Part shown: piece by piece, positions 26,146 through 27,809 of the stretch
How the letters are laid out: the number at the start of each line of letters is the position of its first letter
How positions within the stretch are numbered: position 1 is the stretch's first letter
Source of the DNA: Dehalococcoidia bacterium
GTDB lineage: Bacteria > Chloroflexota > Dehalococcoidia > Lucifugimonadales > VXLM01
NCBI GenBank assembly: GCA_034421575.1
Contig: DAOUKG010000032.1
Location: forward strand, 6,873-70,872
DNA length: 64,000 bases
Direction: 5' to 3'
Notes under the pieces: generated by a model
Seen by the model: only the letters and a program-made list of their open reading frames with translations
Told to the model about the DNA's origin: nothing
Databases searched by the model: none
Program-made: the position numbers and the translations under genes

Positions 26146-27770
26146 TCGATAAGCAACCTAAAGACTACACACCGGCAGCCCTCTACGCCAGAGTTTCCAG
26201 CGACCGTCAGGATGTTGACCTGTCCGTCGCCGCACAGTTGAGGGCGCTCCGGGAGCACGCCGAAAAGAACGGTTACATGGTTGTGCGCGAGTATGTCGAC
26301 GAGGCCGAAAGCGGACGCATCGCCGACAGGCCCCAGTTCCGCAAGATGCTGGACGAAGCCTCAAAAGCCAGTGCCCCCTTCCAGGAGATTCTCGTCTGGA
26401 AATTCTCCCGCTTCACGCGGAAGCGGGAGCACGCCGTCGCTTTCAAGTCCATGCTTCGAAGACGCGGTATTCGAGTGACATCGATCACTGAGCACGCCGA
26501 CGACTCGCCCACAGGCAAGCTCATGGAAGCCATCATCGAGAGCGTGGACGAGTTCTATAGCGAGAACTTGGCCCAAGAGGTCACGCGGGGGTTGCGTGAG
26601 GCCGCCTCTCGTGGCTTCTGGATGGGCACCAACGCCCCATTTGGCTACAAGAAAGTCTACGTCCAAGACGGAGCCAAGAAGCGCCCGAAGCTGGAGCCGA
26701 ACCCGCCAGAAGATGCAGTGGTCAAGCGCATGTTCGACATGGCCCTGCAGGGCATGAGTTCACTCGACATCGCCAGGAACCTCAACGCCGAAGGCATCGC
26801 CAGTCCCAAAGGGAAGCAGTGGCTCAAGAGTACCGTCCACACAACTATCAACAACGAAGCATACACAGGCACCGTAGTCTGGGGAGTCAATGCCAAGGAC
26901 GGCGCTCCGCCGGTACGCGTCGAGAAGGCGTTCCCCGCCATCGTCTCCAAGCGCAAGTTCCAGCAGGTCGCCAACCTGCTGAAATCTCGCGCACCTAAGA
27001 GCGTACATCCCCGCCGGGCGTCCAGCCCTTACCTGCTCAGCGGACTGGCAAAGTGCGAGACATGCGGCAAGGCCCTCACTGCAGCCGAGGCCAAAAGCGG
27101 CAAGTACACCTACTACGTCTGCCACTCCCTGCTCAAGAAGGGTAAGGGAACGTGCAGGACTCCCAGGCTCAACTCGAAGAACTTTGAGGGCCTGATCGTC
27201 TCCAACATCCGCGACAATATCCTCACTGAGAGCAACATCCGCGACCTTGTGAAGATAGTGGACGGGGAGATGGACGGGGTTGCCCGCGAGCAGCGCAAGA
27301 GACTGAAGGTAATCGAAGAGGAGCTTGAGGACGTGAAGAAACGGCTGGACAAAATCTGGCACGCCATCGAGACGACCGATATCGAGATGTCCCAAGCCTC
27401 GGACCGCATCAAAGAGAACTGGGAGCGCAAGGAGAAGCTGGAAACCTCGGCTGAGGAGGCGCGGGCGGCTCTGTCGAAGCGGAGAGTTACGCTGGACAGG
27501 ATGGCGAAGATCACGGACTTCGCACAGGAAATGAGGGAGTATCTAAAGAAAAGCGACCTAACCCAGTCGAGGGCGTTCATACGGTCGTTCGTCAAGGAGG
27601 TTTCGGTCAGGCCCGGCAAGGCCACGATCCACTACACAATGCTCACTCCGGAGGATAGTCCCACATTAGGCGGCGACACCGCAGAGGTCATCCTGAACGG
27701 AGGAGTTATGAATATGGGAGTCTCAAGTGGGGAAGGAGGGACTCGAACCCTCACGCCTTGCGGCACATGA
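26142..27770 (+). CDS. Large serine recombinase (integrase)
   Basis: Catalytic ALYARVSS, RPQF..ML, recombinase domain PFGY, zinc ribbon CETCG..YYVC..C, coiled coil. The last ~14 codons lie antisense within tRNA-Leu. Confidence 0.95.
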   Translation: MIDKQPKDYTPAALYARVSSDRQDVDLSVAAQLRALREHAEKNGYMVVREYVDEAESGRIADRPQFRKMLDEASKASAPFQEILVWKFSRFTRKREHAVAFKSMLRRRGIRVTSITEHADDSPTGKLMEAIIESVDEFYSENLAQEVTRGLREAASRGFWMGTNAPFGYKKVYVQDGAKKRPKLEPNPPEDAVVKRMFDMALQGMSSLDIARNLNAEGIASPKGKQWLKSTVHTTINNEAYTGTVVWGVNAKDGAPPVRVEKAFPAIVSKRKFQQVANLLKSRAPKSVHPRRASSPYLLSGLAKCETCGKALTAAEAKSGKYTYYVCHSLLKKGKGTCRTPRLNSKNFEGLIVSNIRDNILTESNIRDLVKIVDGEMDGVAREQRKRLKVIEEELEDVKKRLDKIWHAIETTDIEMSQASDRIKENWERKEKLETSAEEARAALSKRRVTLDRMAKITDFAQEMREYLKKSDLTQSRAFIRSFVKEVSVRPGKATIHYTMLTPEDSPTLGGDTAEVILNGGVMNMGVSSGEGGTRTLTPCGT

Positions 27771-27809
27771 TCCTAAGTCATGCTCGTCTGCCAATTCCGA
27801 CACTTCCCC
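27728..27809 (-). tRNA. tRNA-Leu (anticodon TAG), CCA not fully encoded
   Basis: Reverse complement GGGGAAGTGTCGGAATTGGCAGACGAGCATGACTTAGGATCATGTGCCGCAAGGCGTGAGGGTTCGAGTCCCTCCTTCCCCA; long variable arm; followed by CTT rather than CCA. Confidence 0.95.

Follow-up and report, generated by a model that had tools for sequence, protein, structure and literature searches.

Large serine recombinase genes of Dehalococcoidia elements that read into tRNA genes and change their 3' ends at a conserved junction

An integrase reading frame that ends inside tRNA-Leu

The window analyzed here is a 64,000-nucleotide stretch of DNA from a Dehalococcoidia bacterium (assembly GCA_034421575.1, contig DAOUKG010000032.1, positions 6,873 to 70,872 of the forward strand). 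Within it, a gene for a large serine recombinase (LSR) runs on without a stop codon into the opposite strand of a tRNA-Leu gene. The original prediction for this locus held that the attachment (att) site lies inside the open reading frame (ORF) of the integrase, and that the integrated and excised forms of the enzyme would consequently carry different C-terminal tails. The locus thus raises the question of whether such an ending is an accident of one gene, whether it marks the place of strand exchange, and whether the exchanged tail serves any function. Based on comparison with related loci, we consider it probable that an LSR element, likely a mobilizable one, is inserted at the 3' end of tRNA-Leu(TAG) with its att site in the LSR ORF, and that the tail is a by-product of this arrangement.

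The LSR gene in the window, termed LSR-A, is intact (26142..27770, plus strand) and encodes a protein of 542 aa with the Pfam domains Resolvase (PF00239), Recombinase (PF07508) and Zn_ribbon_recom (PF13408). Residues S19/S20 within YARVSSDRQ are invariant across homologs, long helices are present at residues 363-470 of the predicted structure, and the closest solved structure is that of SPbeta SprA (9dxh). With resolvase, recombinase and zinc-ribbon domains all in place, the ORF is by its sequence a large serine recombinase, and it is predicted to catalyze attP x attB recombination with a 2-bp staggered crossover.

The LSR protein ends in ...GVMNMGVSSGEGGTRTLTPCGT (also written ...NGGVMNMGVSSGEGGTRTLTPCGT), with the TGA stop codon at 27768-27770. 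The gene that it enters, tRNA-Leu(TAG) at 27727/8..27809 on the minus strand, was identified with ARAGORN and scores 55.6 bits with Rfam. It is intact, has an undisturbed acceptor stem (GGGGAAG/CTTCCCC) and closes with CCCC-A-CTT, so that CCA is not encoded. The ORF and the antisense strand of the tRNA gene overlap by 43 nt (27728..27770), a segment that encodes the junction-specific tail (S)GEGGTRTLTPCGT*, and the LSR stop codon falls on tRNA positions 40-42, which form part of the 3' strand of the anticodon stem. All that the original prediction had described was correct, namely that no LSR stop lies ahead of the tRNA, that the stop codon sits in the anticodon stem and that the tRNA gene ends in CCCC-A-C-TT instead of A-CCA. 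Fourteen codons without a stop are not remarkable for one ORF taken alone.

In a protein search we found more than 100 homologs with 72-100% identity and lengths of 517-645 aa. We retrieved 80 genomic loci, all but one of them from Dehalococcoidia or Chloroflexota metagenome-assembled genomes (MAGs), with several genomes holding 2 or 3 copies; our classification of loci covers 79, the window included. Nearly all of 120 homologs read through a conserved GG. Their C-termini agree up to ...PTPEDSPIGGxDxAEvxLNGGV(M/R)(N/S)....GG and are unrelated beyond it, with tails ranging from 1 to more than 100 residues. At the junction of 40 of the 79 loci there is a tRNA gene on the opposite strand, and the tail is then the antisense of the tRNA 3' half. 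Tails of this kind are frequent among the homologs and include GEGGTRTLTPCGT, GPGWTRTIDLGLIRTAL, GAGGTRTPYLFNAIEALSQ.., GAGGTRTPYLFNAIEALSQMSYSPT.., GDRGTRTPNLGIANAALSQLSYIPT.. and ..G.GGTRT.., with GDRGTRTPNLGIANAALSQLSYIPT.. being the tRNA-Ala tail that is also present in a gene remnant elsewhere in the window. All 40 tRNA-adjacent LSR genes overlap their tRNA, by 13-259 nt and always in antisense orientation. The target tRNAs represent 14 anticodons (Ile, Lys, Met, three for Ala, three for Val, three for Arg, Leu and Asn), and a 15th target, tRNA-Glu, was found on a metagenome contig (L083). As read-through is common to nearly all homologs and to 40 of 40 tRNA-adjacent loci, it is a trait of the family and not a private stop-loss.

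We regard it as extremely improbable that the arrangement in the window results from private stop-loss or decay, or that the LSR gene came to lie beside a tRNA gene by chance, for example on an island placed by a tyrosine integrase. A tyrosine-integrase fragment does lie beside the other tRNA gene of the window that is discussed below, which would be in line with such a coincidence. However, the homologs do not stop before the junction, 40 independent tRNA junctions are in the same register, and the conserved module that contains the LSR gene has no tyrosine integrase. Nor does the window contain the repeated copy of the tRNA 3' end that a tyrosine-type island would leave; the 27-nt segment searched is unique there even at 3 mismatches. 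Furthermore, the LSR protein is 91% identical across genomes whose flanking DNA is only ~88% identical.

Crossover position and half-sites

The place of strand exchange can be bracketed by comparing near-identical LSR genes in different surroundings. In 23 pairs of loci the LSR genes are 95-99.8% identical over the 1226 nt upstream of the junction and are followed by unrelated sequence. The break point in most of these pairs is directly after TGGTGG or no more than 4 bases further; exceptions are due to substitutions upstream of the TGGTGG block or concern L038, which has a rearranged junction. One such switching pair occurs within a single MAG (L001 at tRNA-Leu and L002 at tRNA-Ala), another within a single genome (L014 and L015, 99.95% identical over 11.6 kb), while L009 at tRNA-Lys and L011 at a non-tRNA partner are identical over 10 kb upstream and then diverge. 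TGGTGG is the complement of CC-A-CCA, that is, of the last two acceptor bases, the discriminator and CCA. That the 23 pairs break after this block sets the right-hand limit of the crossover. These pairs also bear out the proposals that the att site lies within the integrase ORF and that homolog tails switch at the conserved GG, and in no junction comparison did the crossover map outside the ORF.

At junctions with tRNA-Arg (TGGTAC), tRNA-Asn (TGGC) and tRNA-Glu (TGGTAG), the bases past TGGT follow the tRNA, and the attL-type junction of L031 (GAGC|GGGCC...) agrees with this. The crossover is thereby confined to tRNA positions 71-76, inside the ORF in every case, with positions 73-75 being most consistent with all junctions. 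The original prediction had placed it at about 74-75, a value that fits the comparative bracketing to 73-75, although only the wider interval of 71-76 is firm.

The missing CCA sets tRNA-Leu apart in this lineage, in which CCA is encoded by 18 of the 20 tRNA genes that are not beside an LSR gene and by 38 of the 40 that are. The two LSR-adjacent exceptions are the window, with AAG instead of TGG, and L005, with GAG. The AAGT junction of the window recurs identically in L096, whose flanks are only ~88% identical at the DNA level, and L081 (scaffold_775), a strain from the same sample, is 98% identical to the window across the CCA-less junction region. Since the window and L096 have the AAGT junction in common, it represents either a native gene without CCA or an old inherited insertion.

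By inspection of sequences, break points and conservation, we delimited a 44-bp attR-type hybrid site in the window (27705..27748, plus strand). Its left part is the P arm GTTATGAATATGGGAGTCTCAAGTG (27705-27729, plus strand), which constitutes the 3' end of the LSR ORF, consists of an invariant GTT followed by A.T..G.A and then TGGTGG, and ends in …GGAGTTATGAATATGGGAGTCTCA. Its right part is the tRNA B' half-site GGGAAGGAGGGACTCGAAC (27730-27748, plus strand), which ends in the T-loop. The putative crossover interval, 27724-27730, corresponds to tRNA positions 71-76 plus the CCA equivalent. Junctions with tRNA partners are likewise made up, by inspection, of a left half of 25 bp and a right half of 19 bp that ends in the T-loop ...CTCGAAC. 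Partners other than tRNA genes are of three kinds: a convergent second LSR gene arranged tail to tail, which is of the B type (53% identical) or of the A/C type; a class c arm, which is a conserved arm of ~50 nt resembling the inverted 3' end of an LSR gene; and short tRNA 3' fragments. The LSR-pair and class c junctions form a 50-bp imperfect palindrome, GTTC-N42-GAAC, with TGGTGG at positions 21-26. Like LSR att sites, which span about 40-50 bp, the junctions are short (50 bp, or 25 plus 19 bp) and have no long identity between them.

In LSR sites the attP-type half-site is the longer and the attB-type half-site the shorter, as established in work on the A118/LI integrase. The combination of a long attP and a short attB half-site, as delimited here from sequence, matches this usual geometry. 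The T-loop GTTCGA is located ~6 bp nearer the center than the GTTC of the P arm, and we infer that this invariant motif is what the enzyme recognizes at the outer end of the chromosomal half-site. The half-site downstream of the tRNA appears to be unconstrained, which would explain the many targets, the insertion beside resident elements and the tandem junctions.

Several loci show further variation at the junction. In L003, L012, L016, L026 and L080 (about 11570-11640) the LSR gene abuts a truncated tRNA 3' fragment where other loci have a whole tRNA gene; such fragments may be displaced leftovers of other islands that were reused as targets. In L017 (about 11551-11580) the P arm is separated from the TGGTGG of tRNA-Val by the additional bases CCGGAAG (…CACTATGGCCGGAAGTGGTGGGCGG…), which could represent a footprint or else a variant of the site. 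Full-length LSR genes in tail-to-tail pairs are found in L004, L013, L014, L020, L021, L024, L039, L052, L064 and L069 (about 11550-13150), where the 3' ends overlap at TGGTGG/CCACCA and each LSR gene has its own ribbon-helix-helix (RHH) gene. Such pairs are either the attP of two-recombinase elements or the junctions of tandem or nested insertions. The B-type family is very abundant, with 661 members in one 90% cluster. LSR-B tails switch as well, right after VLDFVKSGPP (equivalent to CCACCA), and mostly to P'-type arms or to the tails of other LSRs.

In the model that we propose, the attachment site of the element would be the last ~25 bp of the integrase ORF, i.e. the P arm, and the chromosomal half-site B' would be the 3' acceptor strand and T arm of the tRNA gene, with tRNA-Leu(TAG) being the likely integration target in the window. 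Strand exchange would take place in tRNA positions 71-76, most likely at 73-75, and would leave the tRNA body intact, with at most an encoded CCA swapped for P-arm bases. Besides many tRNA genes, tRNA 3' fragments and resident-element ends would serve as targets. Because the att site is inside the 3' end of the ORF, any recombination would rewrite the C-terminus. With no stop ahead of the crossover the ORF would gain whatever sequence follows, and the C-terminus would differ between the integrated, tandem and presumably also the excised states.

The junction-specific tail

Whether the exchanged tail matters to the enzyme was addressed by examining conservation and predicted structure. In the homolog alignment, the gene upstream of the P arm has a normal coding pattern with variable third positions. 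In the last ~27 nt this pattern is lost and third codon positions are no more variable than the other two, with an invariant GTT and 1.3-1.9 bits per base in TGGTGG. We take the codons that immediately precede the crossover to be constrained as a DNA binding site. At the protein level the invariant columns end at V522, and from there ~8 codons remain to the crossover. An AlphaFold model of the LSR, with a mean predicted local distance difference test score (pLDDT) of 54.7, has as its last structured element a hairpin at residues 484-499, and residues 500-542 have pLDDT values of 27-36. We favor the view that attP has been packed against the functional end of the protein and that the tail is a by-product which is tolerated, not a dedicated switch, because the tail is past the last predicted fold, is of arbitrary length and follows a P arm that is conserved at the DNA level.

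Several points weigh against an insertion with a by-product tail as we have described it. The structural model is of low overall quality, which makes disorder of the tail weak evidence. LSR-A, LSR-B, C-type LSRs and DsiB, an integrase of Dehalococcoides islands that is discussed below, all have the same arrangement. In none of these four has a stop codon arisen ahead of the crossover, and the read-through could equally be selected. The exact crossover is ambiguous as well, with site symmetry pointing to C71-C72 and cross-target comparison to positions 73-75. Lastly, attL, attP and an empty attB of the window element were not found in the window, in relatives or in metagenome matches. Integration by the LSR at tRNA-Leu is therefore deduced from comparison and not observed.

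According to the original prediction, the different tails of the integrated and excised forms could control stability or directionality. In such a regulatory device, an antisense-tRNA tail in the integrated state and a P'-encoded tail (e.g. GP.WTVDGTIFEMWLG) in the excised or tandem state would affect the integrase differently, much like the C-terminal tag control in the integration-dependent immunity of mycobacteriophages. We consider this unlikely. Read-through is universal in three LSR lineages and DsiB, no stop has evolved in the ~8 codons from V522 to the crossover, and the P'-type tail peptides are conserved across partners, as exemplified by TVD.TIFEMWLG, which follows both LSR-A and LSR-B; all of this speaks for a regulatory tail. 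However, tails of the integrated state that vary from a single residue to over a hundred are alike only to the extent that tRNAs are alike, and no degradation-tag-like motif is evident in the tails. The conservation of the P' tails is explained by their being an inverted copy of the LSR 3' end and thus a DNA half-site.

Regulation could also operate on RNA. Transcription of the integrase gene can reasonably be expected to yield RNA antisense to the tRNA. Convergent transcription of the strongly expressed tRNA gene, or pairing of the tRNA or its precursor with the last 43 nt of the mRNA, might lower the amount of integrase only when the element is integrated, possibly via a non-stop mRNA. The 43 nt are perfectly complementary, the stop codon is within them and the orientation is antisense in 40 of 40 tRNA-adjacent loci. 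Yet the antisense orientation is already a consequence of the site geometry, a promoter and terminator scan gave no signal above background, and non-tRNA junctions are about equally common, and we hold such RNA-level control to be very unlikely.

A more far-reaching proposal, which seems to us quite unlikely, is that these LSRs read only generic tRNA 3' architecture (the T-loop plus the ACCA end) as the single specific half of attB. Every tRNA gene, tRNA fragment or end of a resident element could then serve as a landing pad, and the rewriting of the C-terminus and the mRNA 3' end at each recombination would act as a built-in sensor that distinguishes integrated, tandem and excised states and tunes the level or direction of the integrase. 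Taken together, these considerations leave the by-product interpretation as the one that we prefer.

The element, its surroundings and related systems

A 4.4-kb module (about 23285-27726) is common to many loci and ends with the LSR gene. Its left limit in related loci is formed by three small divergent genes (HTH_3, HTH_23-like and one unknown; 23259..24124, minus strand). These are followed on the plus strand by a repressor-like gene of the XRE type with a helix-turn-helix (HTH) domain (24468-24902) and by an ImmA/IrrE-like metallopeptidase gene (24899-25846), both of which belong to the conserved integration and regulation module. The RHH (CopG) gene (25915..26145, plus strand) overlaps the LSR start by 4 nt and is conserved upstream of LSR-A and LSR-B, and its product is a candidate regulator or directionality factor. 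The segment at 16656..23199 on the plus strand, with a G+C content of 0.51-0.54, is probable cargo; its genes encode a 1168-aa cadherin-like protein, a 586-aa AAA_22 ATPase and a protein of 422 aa. Related genomes differ in their cargo to the left of about 23285. In L096 this region encodes a TrwB-like coupling protein and a protein of 558 aa that has no more than a faint match to MarR_2. In size and Pfam match, the latter is comparable to the Replic_Relax protein (568 aa) of L091, a B-type element. Judged by gene content, the family looks like integrative mobilizable elements and not phages, and no relatives were found in viral contigs.

The strain represented by L081 is 98% identical to the window over 16 kb and has the module and the tRNA-Leu flank as in the window; left of the module (window position 23291) it encodes a 1658-aa SACS/NOV_C protein instead of the cadherin-like and AAA_22 set.

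Contiguity of the window from its first position up to about 26.7 kb is supported by an independent scaffold, which breaks off within the repeated LSR gene. A left end of the element did not emerge from our searches. When the window was searched for the inverted P arm and the known P' arm types, the sole match was the remnant at tRNA-Ala described below, and in comparisons with near-identical elements the homology leaves the 10-kb flanks or stops inside genes. Searches for an empty site or an element-free strain returned occupied sites only, and the metagenome matches included no circular contigs such as excised circles would give. The limit of homology at about 23263-23291 was considered as an element end and rejected, as it is the end of a conserved gene with different cargo leftward in relatives. 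Similarities at 16600-16656 and 23216-23248 were rejected because they are at chance level.

Elsewhere in the window, three ankyrin-repeat genes (498, 367 and 927 aa; 27885-34283) are absent from the otherwise syntenic L096. This cluster has an internal duplication of ~800 bp (29515-30318 and 30832-31632, 85% identical). A second low-G+C stretch at 50000-53000 (0.48-0.50, against a background of ~0.62) may be another foreign segment.

The window contains a second junction of the same kind. At tRNA-Ala(CGC), which encodes CCA (2849..2924, plus strand), the decayed 3' remnant of a related LSR gene (2925..3169, minus strand) places the same P arm (GGAGTTATGAGTATGGGAGTC) directly against the CCA of the tRNA, and tRNA-Ala thus appears to have been the target of an older insertion. 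The 21-mer GGAGTTATGARTATGGGAGTC occurs in the window only at 2927-2947 (minus strand) and 27702-27722 (plus strand). Translation of the remnant on the minus strand gives SRAFIRSFVKEIVIGPGEAKVRYTLPTP*DSPIGGDVAEIVLNGGVMSMGVYGG..., with an in-frame stop, and continues into the antisense of tRNA-Ala. A chimeric ORF (2993-3301, minus strand) begins with ~72 codons from the start of a P4-type tyrosine integrase gene (Arm-DNA-bind_3) and continues in frame into the final ~30 codons of the LSR remnant, with the fusion point at about 3085; from its sequence, this ORF marks a deletion that joined two successive islands at tRNA-Ala. As the remnant is decayed and fused at about 3085, we read it as an older independent insertion that was mostly deleted later, and not the other end of the element at tRNA-Leu. 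A single 24.8-kb element between the two tRNA genes, integrated at a convergent-pair attB, was rejected on account of the fusion of the tRNA-Ala remnant to the tyrosine-integrase fragment. Just past this remnant is a 3490-aa two-module polyketide synthase gene (3652-14124, minus strand), a segment of which is 65-71% identical to sequence a few kb from LSR remnants in L059. The polyketide synthase may travel on LSR islands.

The main addition of this work is a large Dehalococcoidia LSR family located at tRNA 3' ends with a defined site geometry. Serine integrases are generally regarded as enzymes of a single specific chromosomal site. Near-identical enzymes at many tRNA genes imply recognition of a generic, universally present half-site, which would explain the spread and stacking of elements in Dehalococcoidia genomes and suggests a natural broad-host landing-pad system. 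The overlap of gene and att site offers a compact, testable case of a protein end that is rewritten by the protein's own reaction. For annotation, it follows that variable C-termini, ORFs that run into tRNAs and tail-to-tail recombinase pairs are real features and not errors.

How does this arrangement compare with known systems? The integrases A118/LI, Bxb1 and phiC31 reportedly use an attP of ~50 bp and a shorter attB, both with imperfect inverted half-sites. The canonical sites are said to have a central crossover, an attB outer motif several bp nearer the center and no long identity. The canonical attP lies between genes and the canonical attB is a single specific locus, whereas here half of attP codes for the enzyme and the attB half would be a generic tRNA feature. 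In the integration-dependent immunity of mycobacteriophages, to which the original prediction had likened this locus, a tyrosine recombinase reportedly acts on an att site in the repressor ORF and a degradation tag is removed. Both systems have an att site in an ORF whose C-terminus is altered by integration. However, the gene crossed there is that of the repressor and here that of the integrase, and the window element does not belong to this class, as its XRE gene is intact and 2.8 kb from the junction. Archaeal integrases of the SSV1 type are tyrosine recombinases with attP inside int and a tRNA target, and their integration divides int into two parts, neither of which is functional; here, in contrast, only a short tail past the last domain is exchanged.

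Islands of the Islander/TIGER type, which are placed in tRNA genes (tDNA) by tyrosine integrases, leave behind a direct repeat in the form of a displaced tRNA fragment (PMC4383910). The element studied here is like them in its position at a tRNA 3' end, in its adjoining integrase gene and in keeping the tRNA functional; it differs in that the module has no tyrosine integrase and the window no repeat of a tRNA 3' fragment. A 2015 reference work stated that serine integrases are not known to target tRNA genes (PMC4383910), and in the literature we searched, the coverage of which is incomplete, we found no later description of a serine integrase family that does so. That nearly identical LSRs target many tRNA genes thus appears to be undescribed.

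The closest likeness is to DsiB, a CcrB-like LSR of ~540 aa from Dehalococcoides islands at the tmRNA gene (McMurdie et al. 2011, BMC Genomics 12:287; PMC3146451). Alignments of DsiB diverge at the 3' end, and the protein was suggested to be perhaps fully functional only on the circular element or beside an adjacent island (PMC3146451). The observation and the idea in the original prediction are thus not new, since the same overlap and the same speculation were published for DsiB. By its description, DsiB is also a ~540-aa LSR of Dehalococcoidia at an island edge, on the strand opposite its target RNA gene, with a 3' end that overlaps the att site and a stop codon that is not reached until the frame has left the island and entered ssrA or the adjacent island; divergent C-termini and tandem arrays are further points in common. 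An RNA gene scan found no tmRNA gene in the window. The DsiB module consists of DsiA (a small serine recombinase), a RecF-like protein, ParB and Mom with an embedded tRNA-like gene, while the module here contains HTH, XRE, ImmA-like and RHH genes. DsiB islands insert in the T-loop and have a 20-bp direct repeat, while the insertion here would be at the ACCA end and without a repeat. Finally, DsiB uses the single tmRNA gene, whereas the LSR family described here is found at at least 15 tRNA species.

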